A model generated the notes under the pieces. It was not told the DNA's origin. It saw nothing but the letters and a program-made list of their open reading frames with translations, and searched no databases. Positions 52,357 to 60,746 of a stretch of DNA of 64,000 bases are shown piece by piece. Source of the DNA: an uncultured Actinomycetes bacterium (lineage in GTDB: Bacteria > Actinomycetota > Thermoleophilia > Miltoncostaeales > Miltoncostaeaceae); the NCBI GenBank assembly GCA_903896045.1, contig CAITWD010000022.1:4398-68397 (forward strand), given 5' to 3'. Position 1 is the first letter of the stretch. Each line of letters opens with the position of its first letter. A program made the translations under genes and the position numbers.

Positions 52357-53831
52357 CGAACGCCGTGTCCCGCAAGCGCAGTACGCAGTCGCGATGCTGC
52401 AGCAGGGGGCATCATGGCGGTCACCCGCAGCCCTTCATCGGTGTGATCCTCGGTGATGTCGCGACCGACACGATAGATATCTGAGAGCAGCACGCCAGCG
52501 CTCCATGGGATGACGACATCGAGATGGGTGAAGCGTGCACGTGCAATATCGATGAGCCGGTTGCGCAGATCCTCGAGCCCTTCGTCGCTCGTCGCCGACA
52601 CCAAGACCGCGTCAGGGTGACGCGCGATGAGCGCGGCGCGCTCATCGAGGGGGACCAGATCAATTTTGTTGAGCACACGCAGGCGAGGGATCTCGCTCGC
52701 CCCGATCTCCTCAAGCACCTCTTCGACGGCAATTGCCTGCGTGAGGCGTCGGTGTTCGGGTTCTGAAGCGTCGGCGACATGGAGAATCAGGTCGGCATCG
52801 TGCACTTCATTCAGTGTTGACTGAAACGCCTCAACGAGCTGATGCGGGAGGGCGCGGATGAACCCCACAGTGTCGGAGAGCAGAATTTCGTAGCCACGTG
52901 CCTCAAGTGCGCGGGTAGTGGGGTCGAGCGTCTCAAACAGCGCGTCATTGACCGAGACCTCGGCTCCTGAGAGTGCATTCATCAGGCTCGATTTGCCGGC
53001 ATTTGTATAGCCGGTGAGTGCCACCCGAGGAGCCCCTGATCCAAGTCGTCGCTCGCGCATGGTGGCTCGGGAGCGGTCGAGCTCGCGCAGACGCTTACGC
53101 AAGACCCCCATGCGATTGCGCAACAAGCGGCGATCGGATTCGAGTTGGCTTTCACCGGGCCCTCGGGTACCAACACCACCCCCGAGCCGCTCAAGGTGCT
53201 GCCACAGCCCCTCTTGGCGTTGATAGGAGTATTCGAGCTGGGCGAGCTCGACCTGCAGCTTCCCTTCAGCGGTTGTTGCATGGAGCGCGAAGATATCGAG
53301 GATGACCGCGGTGCGATCTACGACGCGGATCGAGAGCCGGTCCTCAAGCGCGCGCTGCTGACCAGCGCTGAGCTCACCGTTAATTGCGACGAGGTCGGGC
53401 TTCTGCTCGTCCAAGAGCTCCTTGAGCTCGTCGAGCTTTCCTTTTCCGAGGTATGTCTTGGCGTCAGGGCGTGTGCGCTGTTGCACCATTTGGGCGATCG
53501 TCAGCGCGCCACCCGTCTGCAGGAGCTCGACAAGCTCGCGCAGGGAATCTTCAGCGTCCTCGTCAAAACGGTTGACCGAACTGATGACAATGGCCGTTTC
53601 TGGACCCTTGTCGATGAGGTTCTCGTCGTCCTCGTCGCGCTCCGCCCGCCCTCGGTAGGTGCGTTGGAGTTGGCGATCCTTGCCATGATCGAGATAGCGG
53701 TCTTTGCCCACACTGGCAATATTGCACCTTCGGCGGCGGATCGTGTCGTTGGGTGGCGATTCCGAGAGACTTTTGCCACACCACGGATTCGCGTCCTGCT
53801 CGGCTAGATTCGAGGTAGCCACATGTGGCAC
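52353..53831 (-). CDS. hflX: GTPase HflX
   Basis: HflX N-domain (DRTAVILDIFALHATTAEGKLQVELAQL) and G-domain GYTNAGKSSLMNAL. Start uncertain: GTG 53831 or GTG 53711. Confidence 0.9.
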   Translation of the reverse strand: MPHVATSNLAEQDANPWCGKSLSESPPNDTIRRRRCNIASVGKDRYLDHGKDRQLQRTYRGRAERDEDDENLIDKGPETAIVISSVNRFDEDAEDSLRELVELLQTGGALTIAQMVQQRTRPDAKTYLGKGKLDELKELLDEQKPDLVAINGELSAGQQRALEDRLSIRVVDRTAVILDIFALHATTAEGKLQVELAQLEYSYQRQEGLWQHLERLGGGVGTRGPGESQLESDRRLLRNRMGVLRKRLRELDRSRATMRERRLGSGAPRVALTGYTNAGKSSLMNALSGAEVSVNDALFETLDPTTRALEARGYEILLSDTVGFIRALPHQLVEAFQSTLNEVHDADLILHVADASEPEHRRLTQAIAVEEVLEEIGASEIPRLRVLNKIDLVPLDERAALIARHPDAVLVSATSDEGLEDLRNRLIDIARARFTHLDVVIPWSAGVLLSDIYRVGRDITEDHTDEGLRVTAMMPPAAASRLRTALAGHGVR

Positions 53832-53854
53832 CCCCCCCGATCGAAGGAGCCGTC

Positions 53855-54112
53855 ATGCCATTCGAGCGAGATGTTGATCACGCATTTTCGGGCCAATCGC
53901 CCATTCATCTACACATGGCCAAATACATCATCGATCAGGTTGCCGACGGTCGGCATCTCAGTGATGTGATGGAGGATGCGAATCTGACGAGTTCGCTGTC
54001 GGTGGTTGACCGTCGCGCAATGTTGGAAGACCCACGGGTCACCGCCGCAATACGGGCCGACATCATCACCGAAATGCGTCTGAAGCTGGATGCGATGCTC
54101 GGGCAATCATAA
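53855..54112 (+). CDS. Hypothetical 85-aa protein
   Basis: ATG 53855 preceded by GAAGGAG 5 nt upstream. No family recognised. Confidence 0.55.
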   Translation: MPFERDVDHAFSGQSPIHLHMAKYIIDQVADGRHLSDVMEDANLTSSLSVVDRRAMLEDPRVTAAIRADIITEMRLKLDAMLGQS

Positions 54113-54231
54113 GTCCACACACCTCGCCAATGACGTCGGTCTGCGCAGTATCGACGACGTTGTCGTACTCCTCTCGTTGGGAGCGCGCTATCGTCATGGC
54201 GATGGCGCAGATCCACGCGAGGCACTGAGTA

Positions 54232-55677
54232 ATGCAGCAGTTCTTTTCACAGAACCAAACTATCGTCGTCTTCGCGCATGGTTTGGTGTTTTTCTCGCTG
54301 GGTCTTGCCGTGTGGCTGCAGCGCCGTCGGGCAAGTCGCCTTGTCTTGACCAATGCGCTGATCTGGCTCGCCGCCTTTGCAACTGCGGAAGCGTTCGCCA
54401 CGTGGGGCAACGTCTTTATCCCCATTCAGCAGAGCTATATGGATGCCACGCTGATTAGCGGGCTCCAAATTTTACAGGGACTCCTCGAGGCCGCGACCTA
54501 TGTGCTGATGGTGCAGTTCGGATTGCGCCTTCTCGAACTCGATCGAGGGCTCCGGCGGTGGCTCACCGCTGCGTCGATTGGGATATGGGGTCTTATTATT
54601 GGCGCCGGGATCGTGGTGGGGCACGCACAGCACTGGACCGCGATTGAGTGGGAACACTCAGTCGACAACGTTGCGGCACTTTGCCTGCTGGTGACAGGAT
54701 GTGTCCTTGCGGCGATTGGCATGTGGCGTCAACGCGGCGCGCTGTCCGCTGCCGGAATGAGGGGTATTCGTCCCTATGCCGCCGCGACCGCCGCGGTGCT
54801 CGTCTTTTATGCGCTCATCTCGGCAGTGATTGTCATCGGTGCCCCATGGGCGCCTGGCGTAATCACCCAAGCGCATTGGCTCTCGCTGACAGGCATTCCT
54901 GTGGATGTCGTGCAGGGGCTTGCGGGTCTTGTGTTGTGCGTGCTCGCCGCCAAGCTCTTGGAAATTTTTGAGTTCGAGGCAAAACAACGCGTTGACGCTC
55001 TGGAGCGGTCGCGCGCGATTGCCGAGGAACGTGCGCGTTTTGGCCGGGACCTGCATGACGGAACGATTCAGTCGATCTATGCCGCAGCGCTGCGTCTTGA
55101 GGCAATTGCACTGCGCAGTGATGATGACCCGATGTGCGCAGAAGTGCGGGGCGTCGTTGGCGATCTCAACCACGTCACCGACGATATCCGTTCCTACATC
55201 ACCGACCTTGCCCAAACTCCCGACACCGCATCGGGGATTGCAGATCGGTTGCGTGAACTCGGTGCCGAGTTCGACGCGGAATCGCAGTTGCGCGTACGGG
55301 TCCATGTTGCGGGTATCGCTGCCTCTGGCCCAATCCCCCAGGGTGCGGGGAAGCACCTTAAGCAAATCGTGCGTGAGGCACTCTCGAATGCAGCCCGTCA
55401 TGCCGGTCGCTGCAGCGTCGATGTACGACTCGCGTTTGCCACCGATGAGATCGAGCTGGTGGTGAGTGACAACGGGCGCGGTATTGTCCACGACGACGAT
55501 CCCTCTGCCGGCCTTGGATTGCGCAATATGCATGAGCGTGCGCGCCGTATGGGAGGGCGTCTCGAGGTCACATCACTCTCCCCTGGGACCCGCATTACGG
55601 TCTCGATCCCCCTCGATAGCGACCTTCCGGATTCGACACCAATCCCTCAATACTCCTCTGCAAAGGTGATGCCCTAG
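54232..55677 (+). CDS. Sensor histidine kinase (multi-TM sensor, HisKA_3 + HATPase_c)
   Basis: About 7 TM helices, then RFGRDLHDGTIQSIYAA (HisKA_3) and DNGRGI...GLGLRNMHERA. Confidence 0.9.
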   Translation: MQQFFSQNQTIVVFAHGLVFFSLGLAVWLQRRRASRLVLTNALIWLAAFATAEAFATWGNVFIPIQQSYMDATLISGLQILQGLLEAATYVLMVQFGLRLLELDRGLRRWLTAASIGIWGLIIGAGIVVGHAQHWTAIEWEHSVDNVAALCLLVTGCVLAAIGMWRQRGALSAAGMRGIRPYAAATAAVLVFYALISAVIVIGAPWAPGVITQAHWLSLTGIPVDVVQGLAGLVLCVLAAKLLEIFEFEAKQRVDALERSRAIAEERARFGRDLHDGTIQSIYAAALRLEAIALRSDDDPMCAEVRGVVGDLNHVTDDIRSYITDLAQTPDTASGIADRLRELGAEFDAESQLRVRVHVAGIAASGPIPQGAGKHLKQIVREALSNAARHAGRCSVDVRLAFATDEIELVVSDNGRGIVHDDDPSAGLGLRNMHERARRMGGRLEVTSLSPGTRITVSIPLDSDLPDSTPIPQYSSAKVMP

Positions 55678-56349
55678 ATGACGACCACGCCGACTGACGC
55701 AATCCGCATTCTGATCGTCGACGACCACGCGGTGGTCCGAATCGGTTTGAAGACCGTCCTCACAAATGCGACGGGCTTTCGCGTGGTTGGTGAGGCGGGC
55801 ACGGTCGCCGAGTCGATCACCTTGGCATCGCAGATTCGCCCTGACGTGGTACTGATGGACGTGCGTCTTCCCGATGGCTCAGGCGTCGAGGCCTGTCGTC
55901 GCATCAAAGCCGATCAGCCTGATGTGCGCGTCGTGATGCTGACCTCGTATCAAGACGAGGAGGCGATTGTGGGGGCCGTGATGGCAGGCGCATCGGGATA
56001 TCTGCTCAAGCAGGCGGATGCGGAGCGCCTGATTCAGGCAATTCGCGACGCCGCCGCAGGTGAGTCATCGCTCGATCCGCGCGCCGCAGGCACCCTTCTT
56101 ACGCAATTTCGCGAATTGTCGGCCAAGCAGGCAGAAGCCGAGCTCGCCGGCCTGACCGATCGTGAGCGTCGCATGCTTGCGTTGATCGCGGAGGGGTATA
56201 CCAATCGTGCGATCGGCGAGGTGCTGCACCTTTCGGAGAAAACCGTCCGAAACCATGTCAGCCAGCTCTTGCGCAAGCTGGGCTTCCAACGCCGCTCGCA
56301 GGCGGCCGCGTGGGCTGGTCAGCGCCGCTTGGAGCTTCCGCCTGCCTAG
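55678..56349 (+). CDS. NarL/LuxR-family response regulator
   Basis: REC domain (ILIVDDH...VVLMDVRLPDGSG) plus LuxR HTH (LTDRERRMLALIAEGYTNRAIGEVLHLSEKTVRNHV). Confidence 0.95.
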   Translation: MTTTPTDAIRILIVDDHAVVRIGLKTVLTNATGFRVVGEAGTVAESITLASQIRPDVVLMDVRLPDGSGVEACRRIKADQPDVRVVMLTSYQDEEAIVGAVMAGASGYLLKQADAERLIQAIRDAAAGESSLDPRAAGTLLTQFRELSAKQAEAELAGLTDRERRMLALIAEGYTNRAIGEVLHLSEKTVRNHVSQLLRKLGFQRRSQAAAWAGQRRLELPPA

Positions 56350-56395
56350 ACCAGTGCGCGGTGTGGTGCTCTGGGATTGGCCCACAGGGTGACGT

Positions 56396-56407
56396 GAAAC
56401 CGGTTTC
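56396..56407. promoter_or_regulatory. Palindrome GAAACCGGTTTC upstream of parA-ftsZ
   Basis: Perfect 12-bp palindrome read directly. A related copy AACGGTGTTCTGG (10/13 match to AACCGGTTTCTGG) lies 10 nt downstream of the first copy (starts offset by 23 nt). Confidence 0.3.
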
Positions 56408-56503
56408 TGGGAACCGAGTAACGGTGTTCTGGCCGATAGGACTTCTATTGTCAGTGTCGAACCCCTGACACCAGGATCCTGCTGTCCGGCTGAGGCGCAC
56501 ACG

Positions 56504-57295
56504 ATGTCACGCACTGCACGAGTTTTGGCACTTGCCAATCAAAAAGGTGGCGTTGCGAAGACGACCACGACGATCAACATGGGCGTTGCCCTGAAGGGCA
56601 TGGGATATCGCGTGCTCGCGATCGATCTCGACCCGCAAAGCAACCTTTCGATGAGTCAAGGCATCGACGTCGAGAATCTGACGTTGACGATGTATGACGT
56701 GCTGGTCCGCGAAACCCCGCTGGCCAATCTCATCCACGCGCGTGAGATTGACATTGCCCCTGCGGGGATCGAGCTTGCCGGGGCGGAACTTGCCCTGACT
56801 GCCACGATGGGGCGCGAGCGCGCCCTGCAGCGTGCACTCCGTCCGATGTTGGATCTCTATGACGTGATCTTGATCGACACTCCGCCGTCGTTGGGTTTGT
56901 TGACCATCAACGCGATGGTCGCCTCGCATGGGGTGATCGTGCCGGTGCAGTGCGAGTACCTTTCGCTGCGCGGACTTGCGCAATTGCAGTCCACGCTTGA
57001 GCAGGTGCGCGAGCACTTGAATCCCGACATCGCGATCGCAGGAATACTTCCGACGATGTACGACGGGCGGACATTGCATGCGCGTGAGGCCGTCGATGTC
57101 TTGACCCAGAGTTTCGGTGACATTGTCTATCCAGTGCGGATCGGGAAAACGATTCGGTTTGCTGAGGCTCCTGTGAGTGGACAAAGCGTCCTGTCGTATG
57201 ACCCAGATGGGCAGGCCGCGCGGTGGTACCGCCAGCTTGCGCGTCTTGTGGCTGAGCGCGAATTACGCCCGGTGCCCGAGGAGGTAGGTGCATGA
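56504..57295 (+). CDS. parA: ParA/Soj-family ATPase (orphan; no parB adjacent)
   Basis: Deviant Walker A NQKGGVAKTT, LAIDLDPQSN, ILIDTPPSLG. Confidence 0.9.
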   Translation: MSRTARVLALANQKGGVAKTTTTINMGVALKGMGYRVLAIDLDPQSNLSMSQGIDVENLTLTMYDVLVRETPLANLIHAREIDIAPAGIELAGAELALTATMGRERALQRALRPMLDLYDVILIDTPPSLGLLTINAMVASHGVIVPVQCEYLSLRGLAQLQSTLEQVREHLNPDIAIAGILPTMYDGRTLHAREAVDVLTQSFGDIVYPVRIGKTIRFAEAPVSGQSVLSYDPDGQAARWYRQLARLVAERELRPVPEEVGA

Positions 57296-58551
57296 CAACT
57301 GGCCGTCCAGGACGCACAAGCATGCGGGAAGGACCGCTGTCGGATTTGTTCCGCAGTACCGATCCACCGCGTTCAAATGCGGGGACCGAACAGCTCTTTA
57401 CCCCGACAGATGCCGCTCCGACGCCAGATGTCAACAGCTATGTCGCACTGATCCGTGTTGTCGGCGTCGGTGGTGCTGGCTGTAATGCGATCAACCGCAT
57501 GGTGGAAGCTGGTCTGCGGGGTGTGGAGTTCATCGCGATCAATACCGATCGTCAGGCGCTCGACGCCTGTCGGGCAGATGTGCATATTCCCGTCGGCCTC
57601 GAGCTGACCAAGGGGCGGGGCACAGGCGGCGACCCCTTTAAGGGCGAGCAGTCCATCCGTGATGCGGAGGATCAGATTCGCCGCGCCTTGCGGGGCAGCG
57701 ACCTTGTCTTTATTGCCTCCGGCCAGGGCGGGGGGATGGGCAGCGGTGGCGCACCGATGGTGGCGCGAATCGCCCGCGAAGTCGGTGCCCTCGCAGTTGC
57801 CGTCGTCACGAAGCCATTTCAGTTCGAGGGGAAGCGACGGGTGCAGGTCGCCGATGAAGGAATTGCGCGCCTGCATGACACCGCCGATACGGTCATCGTG
57901 ATTCCGAACGACCGATTGATGACGGTGCTCGAGCGCGGGACATCGATGGTGAGCGCTTTTCAAGTCACCGATGATTTGTTGCGCCAAGGGGTGCAGGGCA
58001 TCTGCGACATGATCACCCTGCCTGGATTGATCAATCTCGACTTTGCCGATGTGCGCACCGTGATCCGCGATGCGGGCGAGGCGCTGTTGGGTATTGGGTA
58101 TGCGGGCGGCGGTAATCGCGCCGCCGAAGCAGCACAGGCAGCGATTTCCTCCGCGTTCTTGGAGACTCCAATCGATGGTGCCCGTGGGGTGCTCCTCGGG
58201 ATCACCGGTGGCCCAGACCTCTCATTGCTCGAGGTATCAGAGGCGGCAGAAATCGTTGCTGCGGCTGCCGACCCAGATGCCAACATTATCTTTGGTGCAG
58301 CAATTGATCCCGAGCTGTCGGGCCAGGTGTGGGTGACAGTCGTTGCCGCAAGCTTTAGTGGGGTGCGGGCTGCGCCATCATCAAACCCTGAAGCGGAAGA
58401 ACGCGCGGGCCGTTTGATTCCGCGTGCGATTGGTCGCTCAGTTGCATCGGTGAGTGGGGCTGTGCCGCGCAGTGCGCTCGAGAGTGCTGCGCATGAGCAG
58501 ACCAGCCTTGATGTGTCAGACCACGTGCACGCAATCGACACCGAGGAGTAG
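57292..58551 (+). CDS. ftsZ: FtsZ-family tubulin-like GTPase (atypical context and termini)
   Basis: IRVVGVGGAGCNAINRM, GQGGGMGSGGAP, T7 loop NLDFADV. GAGGAGG SD and ATGA overlap with parA. Confidence 0.9.
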   Translation: MTTGRPGRTSMREGPLSDLFRSTDPPRSNAGTEQLFTPTDAAPTPDVNSYVALIRVVGVGGAGCNAINRMVEAGLRGVEFIAINTDRQALDACRADVHIPVGLELTKGRGTGGDPFKGEQSIRDAEDQIRRALRGSDLVFIASGQGGGMGSGGAPMVARIAREVGALAVAVVTKPFQFEGKRRVQVADEGIARLHDTADTVIVIPNDRLMTVLERGTSMVSAFQVTDDLLRQGVQGICDMITLPGLINLDFADVRTVIRDAGEALLGIGYAGGGNRAAEAAQAAISSAFLETPIDGARGVLLGITGGPDLSLLEVSEAAEIVAAAADPDANIIFGAAIDPELSGQVWVTVVAASFSGVRAAPSSNPEAEERAGRLIPRAIGRSVASVSGAVPRSALESAAHEQTSLDVSDHVHAIDTEE

Positions 58552-58565
58552 TCGCGTCCCGTCGG

Positions 58566-60137
58566 GTGCGCTCGGTTGTCGCTGCAGGACATCGTGCGTC
58601 GGCAGCAGCCGGCGCACGCATTCTTTCGTTGGGTGGGAATGCGGTCGATGCCGCGGTGGCGACCGCCTGCGCTGCGGCGGTATGTGAAGGGCCGCTGACG
58701 GGCCCGGGCGCCGGGGGGTTCTGCCTGGTTGCACCGCCGAGTGCGCCACCGCAGCTTCTTGATTTCTTCGTCAACACTGCCGGGGGTGGCCCCGATGGGC
58801 GGGTGTGTGACCCGGACGAATTCGACAAATTTGTTGTCCCCTTCGGCGATGCGGAGCAGGTCTTTCATATTGGGCCCGCATCGGTTGCCGTGCCCGGGAT
58901 GCTGCAGGGGTTATGTGCTGTGTGGGAGCGGTTTGGCCGGCTTCCGCTTCCCGAATTAGTTGCCCCTGCCGTCGAGCTCGCGCGGGATGGAGTAGTGATT
59001 GGCCCGGAGTCGGCGTATCTGTTCGCGATTCTTGAGGGCATGCTGCGCTTTAGCCCCGATGCGGCACGTATCTATGCCCCCGATGGGCAACTACTCGGGA
59101 CCGGGGATCGATTTACGAATCCCGATTTGGCGACAACTCTTGAAGAGTTCGGGCGCACCGGGTCGGGCGCGATGGCGCCTGGTGGATGGCTCGCGACACG
59201 CATTGTGGAGGGATTGCAGGCAGTGGGTGGCTATGTCACCCATGATGATCTCGCCGGCTACGCCGTCATCGATCGCATCCCACTCGAGGTCGGGTTCCGC
59301 GGCCGGCGCGTCATCACAAATCCGCCTCCATCATCGGGCGGAATCTTGATCGCCGCCGCGCTCCATCAACTTGACAAACGGGCACCGGCGACCACTCTTG
59401 TCGCGCAGTATCAGCAGCTCATCGCCGCGGGGGAGTACGCCAACAGTCTCCGCACCGACGCATTCGCCCGAGCGCTCCATCAACCTGAGCTCCATGGACA
59501 AGGATGGGCATCGCTGTTTGCGCCAGGAGAGAGGGCGAACCCCTCTCGCGGACCAAATGGGACGACCCATATCAGTGTCATGGACGCTGAAGGGATGGTG
59601 GTCAGCATGACTAGCAGCAATGGGTCGGGCTCTGGGGTCATGCTTCCTGGGACAGGATTTCTGCTCAACAACATGGCGGGGGAGCAAGATCTCAATCCCG
59701 GTGGGTTTGGGACATTGCCCGCCGGTGTACGCATGACCTCGATGATGGCGCCAACCGTGGTGTTCGAGGACGGGCAGCCGGTGCTGGGGATCGGCTCGGC
59801 GGGGTCGAACCGATTGCGATCGGCAATTTTGCAGACGCTGGTTGGTATCGTCGATGAGCAATTGTCGGTCGAGGACGCGGTGGTGCGCGCCCGGGTGCAT
59901 CCTGAGTCGGGCGGCATTGATCTGGAAGGCGGTGTTCCTGATGAGGTTGCTGCCGCACTGCAGGACGGGCAGCATGTGATTCGGCAGTGGGGCGATCGGA
60001 ATCTGTTTTTCGGTGGCGTCAGTGCAGTTGGATGTTGGGGGGATGAACTCCAAGCAGCAGGTGATCCGCGCCGAGGTGGTGGGGCATTTGGGGTCTTGGA
60101 CACAATGGAGGTTGTGGAGCTATCGACACACGCATAG
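58566..60137 (+). CDS. ggt: Gamma-glutamyltranspeptidase family protein
   Basis: GGNAVDAAVA N-terminal region and autoprocessing site NGTTHISVMD...SNGSGSGV. Confidence 0.9.
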   Translation: MRSVVAAGHRASAAAGARILSLGGNAVDAAVATACAAAVCEGPLTGPGAGGFCLVAPPSAPPQLLDFFVNTAGGGPDGRVCDPDEFDKFVVPFGDAEQVFHIGPASVAVPGMLQGLCAVWERFGRLPLPELVAPAVELARDGVVIGPESAYLFAILEGMLRFSPDAARIYAPDGQLLGTGDRFTNPDLATTLEEFGRTGSGAMAPGGWLATRIVEGLQAVGGYVTHDDLAGYAVIDRIPLEVGFRGRRVITNPPPSSGGILIAAALHQLDKRAPATTLVAQYQQLIAAGEYANSLRTDAFARALHQPELHGQGWASLFAPGERANPSRGPNGTTHISVMDAEGMVVSMTSSNGSGSGVMLPGTGFLLNNMAGEQDLNPGGFGTLPAGVRMTSMMAPTVVFEDGQPVLGIGSAGSNRLRSAILQTLVGIVDEQLSVEDAVVRARVHPESGGIDLEGGVPDEVAAALQDGQHVIRQWGDRNLFFGGVSAVGCWGDELQAAGDPRRGGGAFGVLDTMEVVELSTHA

Positions 60138-60208
60138 TTGAACACGATGGTGTTGCCTACCGGATACAGCCGGAGGGTGTACGCGCATCCCTCTCGGATG
60201 GCCCGGCC

Positions 60209-60424
60209 ATGTTGTGGGGCTTTCAGGTCAAGGTCTTTCGCGACGATGAGCTGGTCTGCATCAAGACCTGCTTTGTTGGTCGGGTGACCCTGCAGGCACG
60301 TCACCCCGAGGCACTTGATGCCCCTGGGGAGATCTTGATTCCGGTCTTGCATGATGTCGCCTGCGAAAAGGTGGCCGCGGCGGTTGCCGACGGCAATCTT
60401 GAGGACGAGATCGTCTTTTCCTAA
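60209..60424 (+). CDS. Possible 71-aa ORF or truncated gene remnant (uncertain)
   Basis: The coding-like frame extends upstream of the first ATG to about 60140 with no canonical start. No SD. Confidence 0.25.
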   Translation: MLWGFQVKVFRDDELVCIKTCFVGRVTLQARHPEALDAPGEILIPVLHDVACEKVAAAVADGNLEDEIVFS

Positions 60425-60464
60425 TCCGTATTCGTGATCGCACAAGATCTGTTGAGCTGAGGCG

Positions 60465-60746
60465 CTAGCCGAGTGGCACATCTCCGAGCGGCCCCGCCCC
60501 CGGGCGATCTGATGGACCAAGCTCATTGATGATGATGGTCCCCTCGTGATGAGGCATGTGAATGACGAGCCGTCCAGGCGGGCTCAGGCGGGCAAAGGTA
60601 AAGGTCCACTCATCGGGTGTCCATGCAGACCAGGTCAGTTCAAGCTCGCCTGAGTCCGGGTGGGTTTCGGTGACGATATGCGTGGCGGATGCCAATACCG
60701 CAGCACCAACAGCGCCGAGCAGGTCGGTTGGGCGACGTCGGGACAT
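60465..60746 (-). CDS. Small protein with Tat-like signal
   Basis: MSRRRPTDLLGAVGAAVLASA twin-arginine-like leader. The start overlaps the ygfZ stop by 1 nt (TAATG). Confidence 0.5.
   Translation of the reverse strand: MSRRRPTDLLGAVGAAVLASATHIVTETHPDSGELELTWSAWTPDEWTFTFARLSPPGRLVIHMPHHEGTIIINELGPSDRPGAGPLGDVPLG

Follow-up and report, generated by a model that had tools for sequence, protein, structure and literature searches.

In a 64,000-nucleotide (nt) stretch of DNA from an uncultured bacterium of the Miltoncostaeaceae (Actinomycetota, Thermoleophilia; assembly GCA_903896045.1, contig CAITWD010000022.1, positions 4,398 to 68,397), hereafter the window, the gene for a Soj/ParA-type ATPase (parA) overlaps an ftsZ gene that lies outside any division and cell wall (dcw) gene cluster. 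We found this overlapping pair in related genomes and in metagenomes, and its FtsZ carries a conserved N-terminal tag resembling those of the partner proteins of ParA ATPases. The reading of these sequences that we prefer, with a probability of roughly 0.55, is that FtsZ itself is the direct partner and cargo of ParA, the two proteins forming a division-site positioning module. The original prediction for the window, a dedicated and translationally coupled parA-ftsZ operon outside dcw that might serve as a positioning module, is supported by the conserved adjacency, the overlap, an embedded Shine-Dalgarno sequence and the co-occurring tag.

Overlapping parA and ftsZ genes

Both genes are on the plus strand, parA at 56504..57295 (263 amino acids, aa) and ftsZ at 57292..58551 (419 aa). 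The ftsZ start codon ATG (57292-57294) and the parA stop codon TGA (57293-57295) share an ATGA at 57292..57295, also read on the plus strand. The Shine-Dalgarno sequence GAGGAGGT (57278..57285, plus strand) falls within the final codons of parA, with the ftsZ ATG 6 nt further on. The original prediction had described the ATGA and a GAGGAGG within the parA 3′ end; coordinates and frames of the former were confirmed, as was the latter (57278-57284).

Two scans were made, and their counts are counts among the matches listed. The genome scan took one genome per GTDB species and yielded at least 80 FtsZ loci, using peptide patterns that are blind to a ParA-linked type labelled Solirubrobacterales (see below). 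The metagenome search used a back-translated pattern of the tag motif and likewise yielded at least 80 loci. For both proteins, the nearest relatives with a name come from Thermoleophilia, Miltoncostaeaceae and Miltoncostaea marina. The overlapping pair is present in M. marina and nine further Thermoleophilia genomes; the whole block of kinase, regulator, ParA, FtsZ and GGT genes, with the 4-nt overlap, was found in the complete M. marina genome (CP064655.1) and in a 4.16-Mb contig of GCA_003427375.1. ParA (73-78% identity) is encoded directly upstream of all eight of the closest FtsZ loci listed (68-77% identity), and of none of the other 72. A ParA orthologue is also directly upstream in 76 of the 76 listed metagenome contigs that have enough upstream DNA. 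These metagenome ParAs are 58-68% identical to that of the window (74% in one Miltoncostaeales-like contig), and the orthologues in Thermoleophilia 73-100%.

The metagenome loci are of two types. In one, FtsZ reads MARRRASMREGPLAELFRATEAAQRQ...LEPPSFLR and the nearest database proteins are labelled Gaiellaceae; in the other it reads MSRRKRASMREGPLADLFRST...IDVPEFLPG and the members of its cluster bear the labels Solirubrobacterales or Actinomycetota bacterium. The Miltoncostaeales-like sequences are the third group. The original prediction had made conservation of the adjacency in relatives a test of its significance, and the pair is indeed kept in Miltoncostaeales-, Gaiellaceae- and Solirubrobacterales-labelled genomes or contigs while the other flanks change. 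A 2.79-Mb Gaiellaceae contig (ERZ25039533 contig_47379) has AzlC/AzlD genes before parA-ftsZ, unrelated genes after it, and neither kinase nor regulator; since the other neighbors differ there, ParA-FtsZ is the invariant core. Neither dcw genes nor a second ftsZ were found around the 10 related genome loci, at the 80 metagenome loci listed or on this Gaiellaceae contig.

The overlap itself is also kept. An RTGA overlap occurs in nine of the 10 related genomes, the exception being a frameshifted long-read assembly, and the genes overlap by 4-35 nt at 64 of the 66 measurable metagenome junctions listed (29 nt in 42 loci, 14 nt in 15, and between 4 and 35 nt in the other overlapping junctions). 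Across at least 70 metagenome junctions, AAGGAGGT (parA codons K-E-V), equivalent to the Shine-Dalgarno sequence, is almost unchanged 6-9 nt before the ftsZ start. Because the overlap recurs in related genomes and in metagenome junctions, we regard the arrangement as more than chance.

The comparative data support the overlapping codon, rather than the internal Met11, as the start of ftsZ. In both metagenome types the nearest in-frame start before the motif gives M-A/S-R-R-(K)-R-A-S-M-R-E-G-P-L and lies inside the parA open reading frame (ORF). The overlapping start is used in JGI and ENA gene calls, versions beginning at the internal Met are absent from the protein collection, and that Met is Leu in two homologues. 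The conserved Shine-Dalgarno sequence, the JGI and ENA calls and the Met to Leu changes thus point to the overlapping start as the true one, and if so the basic N-terminal residues belong to FtsZ. In NCBI gene models the Solirubrobacterales-labelled ParA-linked FtsZs have 345-371 aa, against 459-480 aa in the JGI and ENA calls. A consequence for annotation is that these NCBI models start 100-130 residues too late, hiding both tag and linker.

N-terminal tag and linker of FtsZ

In alignment, ParA-linked FtsZ has about 45 more N-terminal residues than dcw-linked FtsZ (47 in the window protein). The first part of this extension, MTTGRPGRT-SMREGPLSDLFRST (57292..57360, plus strand), is our proposed ParA-binding and ATPase-activating tag, put forward on its conservation and predicted disorder. 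It consists of a basic cluster followed by S-M-R-E-G-P-L-x-x-L-F-R/K-x-T (S-M-R-E-G-P-L-S/A-E/D-L-F-R/K-x-T in the genome loci), with a net charge of +3 to +5 over the first 9-12 residues. R-E-G-P-L-x-x-L-F is identical across all three sequence groups.

The tag is present in every full-length sequence among the top 120 homologues (two are N-terminally truncated). Ten of 11 ParA-linked genome loci have it too, the eleventh being frameshifted; it is in none of the 72 listed FtsZ loci without ParA. Complete metagenome ORFs that begin with the tag motif are FtsZ in 36 of the 37 cases listed, with 49-63% identity to the window protein. Among the best 150 representatives of FtsZ clusters formed at 50% identity from 1.84 billion proteins, five have the motif and none is a natural ParA-FtsZ fusion. 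Two cluster representatives (539 and 569 aa) have a variant tag, MSEKKSSMREGPLSELFRPT, together with long non-canonical C-terminal tails; these sequences may represent a further, fourth lineage with a tagged FtsZ.

Known partners of ParA/MinD ATPases are encoded beside the ATPase, link it to the cargo, and stimulate it through a short, disordered, positively charged N-terminus (PMC10241942, PMC7993993). The motif in ParB has spaced hydrophobic residues around a central arginine: L11, R13, L15, L18 and I19 (PMC12462528). The FtsZ tag shares with it the spacing L-x-x-L-hydrophobic, having M, R and L-x-x-L-F preceded by Arg and Gly. AlphaFold2 gave residues 1-47 of the window FtsZ a predicted local distance difference test (pLDDT) score of 37-41, as a disordered segment that does not pack on the FtsZ core. 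We propose FtsZ as the ParA partner because its tag fits the partner plan in position, charge and predicted disorder.

The remainder of the extension, residues 24-47 (57361..57432, plus strand), is a variable linker, disordered in the AlphaFold2 model and delimited by alignment. In the Gaiellaceae-like and Solirubrobacterales-labelled types it spans 100-170 aa. Several motifs are conserved within linkers: GTEQLF(T/A)PTD in the window subclade (57382-57411 in the window), T-V-E-H-V-P-x-W/F in the Gaiellaceae type, and PERLKRVFSEEP and PRYGREEP in the Solirubrobacterales-labelled type. Such motifs may be additional partner-binding sites.

ParA

ParA was identified by Pfam (AAA_31, 190 bits; CbiA, 86 bits). 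Its Walker A is the deviant KGGVAKTT (56543..56566, plus strand; NQKGGVAKTT, residues 12-21) with the signature lysines Lys14 and Lys19, which are unchanged in 105 of 105 orthologues; the window protein retains K14, K19 and D43. The segment TIRFAEAP (57149..57172, plus strand), mapped through alignment with structure 8ray, contains R218. This residue aligns with R238, which binds DNA non-specifically in Myxococcus xanthus ParA, and is Arg or Lys in all 105 orthologues; the equivalent basic residue in Bacillus subtilis Soj is presumably the DNA-binding R189. In M. xanthus ParA, the R238E change abolishes DNA binding (PMC12462528).

The same alignment was used for the pocket that holds the ParB peptide in M. 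xanthus ParA. Y81, beside the site that binds the ParB arginine, corresponds to Y64 of the window protein, and pocket residues V116, L150, L152, L155, L187 and L192 correspond to L96, L130, L132, I135, Q167 and L172. Hydrophobic residues are therefore kept at five of the six positions.

Among solved structures the closest are 5if9/4pfs (206 bits, 46.5% identity, 273 aa), a mycobacterial-type protein with the same KGGVAKTT that we take to be from M. smegmatis. Identity to Thermus Soj (1wcv, 183 bits) is 46.4%, and to 8ray (197 bits) 40%. From the Ala at position 60, with an offset of 19, we infer that 8ray is the D60A construct of M. xanthus ParA(21-274) (PMC12462528). Window ParA falls below all NCBIfam family cut-offs, those for ParA, MinD and RepA among them (ParA_partition, 102 bits against 180), and its Pfam MipZ match is weak and partial (39 bits, profile positions 2-150 of 262) beside the 190 bits for AAA_31. 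A nucleoid-binding Soj-type ATPase is the best explanation of these sequence features.

Identity as MinD was considered and rejected: with minD_bact the protein reaches 49 bits (cut-off 212.9), and it has no C-terminal amphipathic membrane-targeting helix. Its C-terminus (...ERELRPVPEEVGA) is rich in proline and acidic residues. Separately, in Gaiellaceae-type loci (n=14) an in-frame upstream ATG would extend ParA N-terminally with a conserved M-G-L-A/S/T-R-L-L-P-R-P; this extension, left out by gene callers, resembles a ParB-type motif.

FtsZ core and C-terminus

The window protein scores 379.4 bits with the NCBIfam ftsZ equivalog TIGR00065 (cut-off 295.2), and 145 and 102 bits with Pfam Tubulin and FtsZ_C. 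The GTPase core and C-terminal domain occupy residues 48-355 (57433..58356, plus strand), and the nearest structure is FtsZ of Mycobacterium tuberculosis (1rlu, 354 bits). The T7 loop NLDFADV (residues 248-254; 58033..58053, plus strand) is intact, matches N-x-D-x-x-D and is invariant in the alignment. The tubulin signature is the variant GGGMGSG (57727..57747, plus strand) in place of GGGTG[ST]G. GGGMG[ST]G is found throughout the window's FtsZ subclade and only there; every other ParA-linked FtsZ has GGGTG[STA]G.

Where other FtsZs have the membrane-anchor-binding C-terminal peptide D/E-I/L-P-x-F-L, the window protein has LIPRAIGRS. By eye, the segment LIPRAIGRSVASVS (58414..58455, plus strand) appears to be a degenerate remnant that has lost the aromatic residue and is followed by a 31-residue tail; LIPRAIGRS is probably homologous to the conserved peptide. 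Miltoncostaea has FDLPYP. The Gaiellaceae-like and Solirubrobacterales-labelled FtsZs keep canonical peptides, LEPPSFLR and IDVPEFLPG respectively, and so look like working division proteins. We infer that ParA-linked FtsZ is the division FtsZ of its cell.

Proposed mechanism

We envisage parA and ftsZ as a two-gene, translationally coupled unit whose products would act together, the FtsZ of the ParA-linked clade having acquired its disordered basic tag. The tag would dock in the ParA pocket and stimulate ATP hydrolysis, in the manner of the N-terminal peptides of ParB, PomX, McdB and MinE. Polymerised FtsZ would be multivalent, and could be both activator and cargo of ParA, so that the distribution of ParA on the nucleoid would set the site of the Z-ring. 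Two routes are conceivable: positioning at mid-nucleoid by flux, in the manner of PomXYZ, or exclusion of FtsZ from ParA-rich regions, as in MipZ. Tag-ParA binding, stimulation of the ATPase and the direction of the positioning effect are all predictions.

We know of no Min or nucleoid-occlusion proteins in Actinobacteria, where the choice of division site is an open question. The cassette is a concrete, testable candidate for that choice in Thermoleophilia, a class found in many soil and sediment metagenomes. A broader form of the proposal, on which we would put about even odds, is that these two overlapping genes achieve complete, self-organising placement of the division ring without Min, Noc, MipZ/ParB or Pom scaffolds in Gaiellaceae-, Miltoncostaeales- and Solirubrobacterales-labelled Thermoleophilia, FtsZ being activating partner and cargo through a ParB-like tag. 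If true, FtsZ here would be the first cytoskeletal protein bearing the "luggage tag" of a ParA ATPase, and the system the simplest ParA positioning system so far, consisting of a single ATPase, a single tagged polymer and the nucleoid; it would be useful for the mechanics of ParA and for synthetic positioning modules. Experiments are feasible in M. marina, for which a culture and a complete genome sequence exist.

Alternative explanations

Several points weigh against the proposal. Single-sequence and profile searches (E <= 10) with the tag matched no PDB chain, ParB included, so its likeness to ParB is one of pattern and not demonstrable homology; compared with the ParB motif, the positions of its first hydrophobic residue and Arg are shifted by one. 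It could equally be a membrane-binding amphipathic helix or bind another protein. In the ParA pocket, the position of L187 is taken by a Gln (Q167). When FtsZ residues 1-51 were fused to ParA and modelled with AlphaFold2, the peptide stayed undocked (pLDDT 30-38) on a well-folded ParA; this model, a monomer with no alignment for the peptide, carries little weight, because the published pocket requires a ParA dimer. The window's own FtsZ has the altered GTP-binding signature GGGMGSG and the degenerate C-terminal peptide. Finally, metagenome-assembled genomes (MAGs) labelled Solirubrobacteraceae have an untagged dcw-linked FtsZ that is not sister to the ParA-linked clade, so the ParA-linked gene may be a paralogue in cells that divide with a different FtsZ.

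This last point is the core of the alternative that survives best, which we hold to be possible, if on the doubtful side: ParA-linked ftsZ would be a second, specialised paralogue with an accessory role (division regulation, another cytoskeletal task, or stress- or stage-specific division), and the canonical ftsZ would follow ftsQ in the dcw cluster. We found dcw-type ftsZ after ftsW-murC-(ddl)-ftsQ in six Actinomycetota loci, two of them from Solirubrobacterales or Solirubrobacteraceae MAGs and four from others; the FtsQ POTRA domain of these loci was verified by Pfam. Both kinds of FtsZ, ParA-linked and dcw-linked, thus occur in MAGs labelled Solirubrobacterales, as a paralogue would lead one to expect. 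In a neighbor-joining tree of the FtsZ core (46 sequences, 308 columns, 100 bootstraps) the ParA-linked sequences form one clade in 100/100 bootstraps, placed inside Actinomycetota in 91/100; this monophyly points to tag and parA linkage having arisen once. The clade has a long stem, and dcw-linked Solirubrobacteraceae FtsZ is its sister in 0/100 bootstraps. Duplication would explain both features, and the pattern is compatible with a duplicated gene of which different lineages lost one copy or retained both; accelerated evolution combined with loose taxonomic labels could also produce it. The relaxed GTP signature and C-terminal peptide of the window subclade would suit a paralogue too, and in other phyla ftsZ copies outside dcw are usually duplicates (bioRxiv 10.1101/2025.09.29.679267).

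Against a paralogue, the window gene passes the cut-off of the ftsZ equivalog, and no module, the C-terminal peptide included, is missing from the Gaiellaceae-like and Solirubrobacterales-labelled FtsZs, whereas known extra copies are mostly truncated (bioRxiv 10.1101/2025.09.29.679267). No second FtsZ locus is among the matches listed for eight Miltoncostaeales-like genomes (four with contigs of 1.5-1.9 Mb), in a scan whose patterns probably, though not certainly, catch the dcw type; and no dcw gene lies in the approximately 85 kb around the window ftsZ. Look-ups of clusters yielded organism names but no evidence that both kinds of ftsZ co-occur. A second, dcw-linked ftsZ in the same genome seems rather doubtful to us.

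Less probable still, and in our view unlikely, is that ParA and FtsZ are co-expressed and related in function while the tag does not bind ParA, being instead a membrane-targeting helix, a modulator of polymerisation or the place where another divisome protein docks; in that case ParA would act through the globular core of FtsZ, as reported for MipZ and MinD, or indirectly. The basic and hydrophobic composition of the tag fits a membrane-targeting sequence, and the undocked fusion model agrees with this explanation. There are precedents as well: a conserved N-terminal peptide of FtsZ affects polymerisation in Anabaena (PMC6175996), and MipZ acts on FtsZ polymer ends without a tag (PMC9897490). 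However, membrane-targeting helices are rarely invariant, and R-E-G-P-L-x-x-L-F is identical across the three groups, as would be expected of a peptide fitting a conserved protein pocket. Moreover, the distribution of the tag among the loci listed coincides exactly with that of parA, and the tag is not predicted to pack on the FtsZ core.

A very improbable alternative is that the two genes have stayed adjacent by descent with no link in function, ParA segregating the chromosome or another cargo with a partner encoded elsewhere: conserved synteny is no proof of function, and a GGT gene with no known link to division is also kept beside ftsZ, but overlap and embedded Shine-Dalgarno sequence persist while all other neighbors change, a ParA-partner-type tag arose on FtsZ in the same clade, and ParA is strongly constrained (73-80% identity among the orthologues listed, 58-68% to the metagenome types).

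Genomic neighborhood

The window has a G+C content of 60.5%. The original prediction noted the absence of division-cluster neighbors and of parB, and this stands: no dcw, min or parB-type genes are among the annotated genes of the window or in the 10 kb past each end, some 85 kb around ftsZ. Neither parS nor ParB was seen in the window, and scpA/scpB do not adjoin its parA. Upstream of parA are HflX (minus strand), an 85-aa ORF, a HisKA_3 kinase (54232-55677) and a NarL/LuxR response regulator (55678-56349), the latter two on the plus strand; downstream of ftsZ are GGT-family, YgfZ-like, LON-N-domain and HisC genes. Pfam assignments of kinase, regulator and GGT agree with the two-component system and ggt named as flanks in the earlier annotation. 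The remaining window holds housekeeping genes (tilS-hpt-ftsH-folPBK-coaX-dus-lysS-clpC-radA...ispD-cysS...glmU-prs-pth-mfd-eno-divIC). Some 8-10 kb upstream of window position 1, a DUF6687 gene is followed by two adjoining genes for ArsA_ATPase/CbiA-type P-loop ATPases (321 and 378 aa), a further ParA/Get3-like pair in this genome neighborhood.

Kinase and regulator adjoin parA only in the Miltoncostaeales-like relatives and are absent upstream of parA in Gaiellaceae. The regulator is 82-88% identical among Miltoncostaeales-like genomes, above FtsZ (68-77%) and its own kinase (47-58%). The GGT-family gene (58566..60137, plus strand; G_glu_transpept, 323 bits) begins 14 nt 3′ of ftsZ, and its product has no evident signal peptide. 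Of the 10 related genome loci, nine have GGT downstream of ParA-linked ftsZ, as have 22 loci from metagenomes or Gaiellaceae; since this holds in all three groups, parA-ftsZ-ggt is an old syntenic triad.

Alignment of 10 upstream regions pointed to an element before parA (TAGGAC ... CGAACC; 56437..56470, plus strand) as a candidate promoter or regulator site. In the Miltoncostaeales relatives a block AGGA-N~17-GAAAC-G.G is kept 40-70 nt before parA, with a weak match in the window; from its sequence it could be an alternative-sigma promoter or a regulator site. The block persists even where other genes part the regulator from parA. In the Gaiellaceae type, a TAGCAT/TAGCCT box precedes parA. 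Together, upstream element and box suggest that parA-ftsZ has its own promoter. A simple scan of 53700-60600 gave no match to the sigma-70 consensus, and terminator-like matches there were no more frequent than expected from shuffled sequence.

Comparison with known systems

ParA-like ATPases that control FtsZ (MipZ, PomZ, MinD/MinC), orphan ParA-like proteins of actinobacteria and the N-terminal peptide of cyanobacterial FtsZ are already known. New in combination are the overlapping parA-ftsZ outside dcw, its conservation in Miltoncostaeales-, Gaiellaceae- and Solirubrobacterales-labelled sequences, and the partner-type tag on FtsZ. Full-text literature searches on Miltoncostaea, Thermoleophilia or Gaiella with ftsZ, or on dcw in basal Actinobacteria, returned no description of the cassette.

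The arrangement recalls ParABS in its Soj-type ATPase with deviant Walker A and DNA-binding arginine, in the partner gene directly downstream, and in the disordered basic N-terminus with spaced hydrophobic residues of that partner. It differs in that the downstream gene encodes FtsZ and not a ParB/Srx CTPase, and in that the tag M-R-E-G-P-L-x-x-L-F, offset by one residue, has no detectable homology to the ParB motif L-G-R-G-L-x-x-L-I.

Like PomXYZ of M. xanthus, the cassette would have a nucleoid-bound ParA/MinD ATPase that positions the Z-ring positively. In Myxococcus, however, the scaffolds PomX and PomY carry the activation and recruit FtsZ; the cassette has neither, and the tag is on FtsZ itself. 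With MipZ of Caulobacter and other Alphaproteobacteria it would share, on our proposal, direct action of a ParA-like ATPase on FtsZ in choosing where the cell divides. The score of window ParA as a generic ParA is far above its MipZ score. MipZ depends on ParB for both activation and localisation, and its globular part is what inhibits FtsZ; the mipZ gene has no linkage to ftsZ, and no such tag is present on Caulobacter FtsZ.

The original prediction had also drawn a comparison with corynebacterial PldP, which is weakly borne out. PldP of Corynebacterium and Rv1708/MSMEG_3743 of Mycobacterium are likewise actinobacterial ParA-like ATPases without an adjoining parB, and have division phenotypes (PMC10482377; bioRxiv 10.1101/2025.07.02.662783). 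The KGGVAKTT P-loop is common to window ParA and its best structure match, but the identity of 46.5% is no higher than the 46.4% to Thermus Soj, so that orthology with PldP/Rv1708 is not established. Their genes adjoin scpA/scpB and not ftsZ (PMC10482377), and FtsZ in their hosts is untagged, the alignment with M. tuberculosis FtsZ beginning at chain residue 8. Heterocyst-forming cyanobacteria offer the other parallel, their FtsZ being canonical apart from a conserved N-terminal extension specific to the clade (PMC6175996); the sequence of that peptide is unrelated, its reported role is in polymerisation, and there it has no linked ParA.

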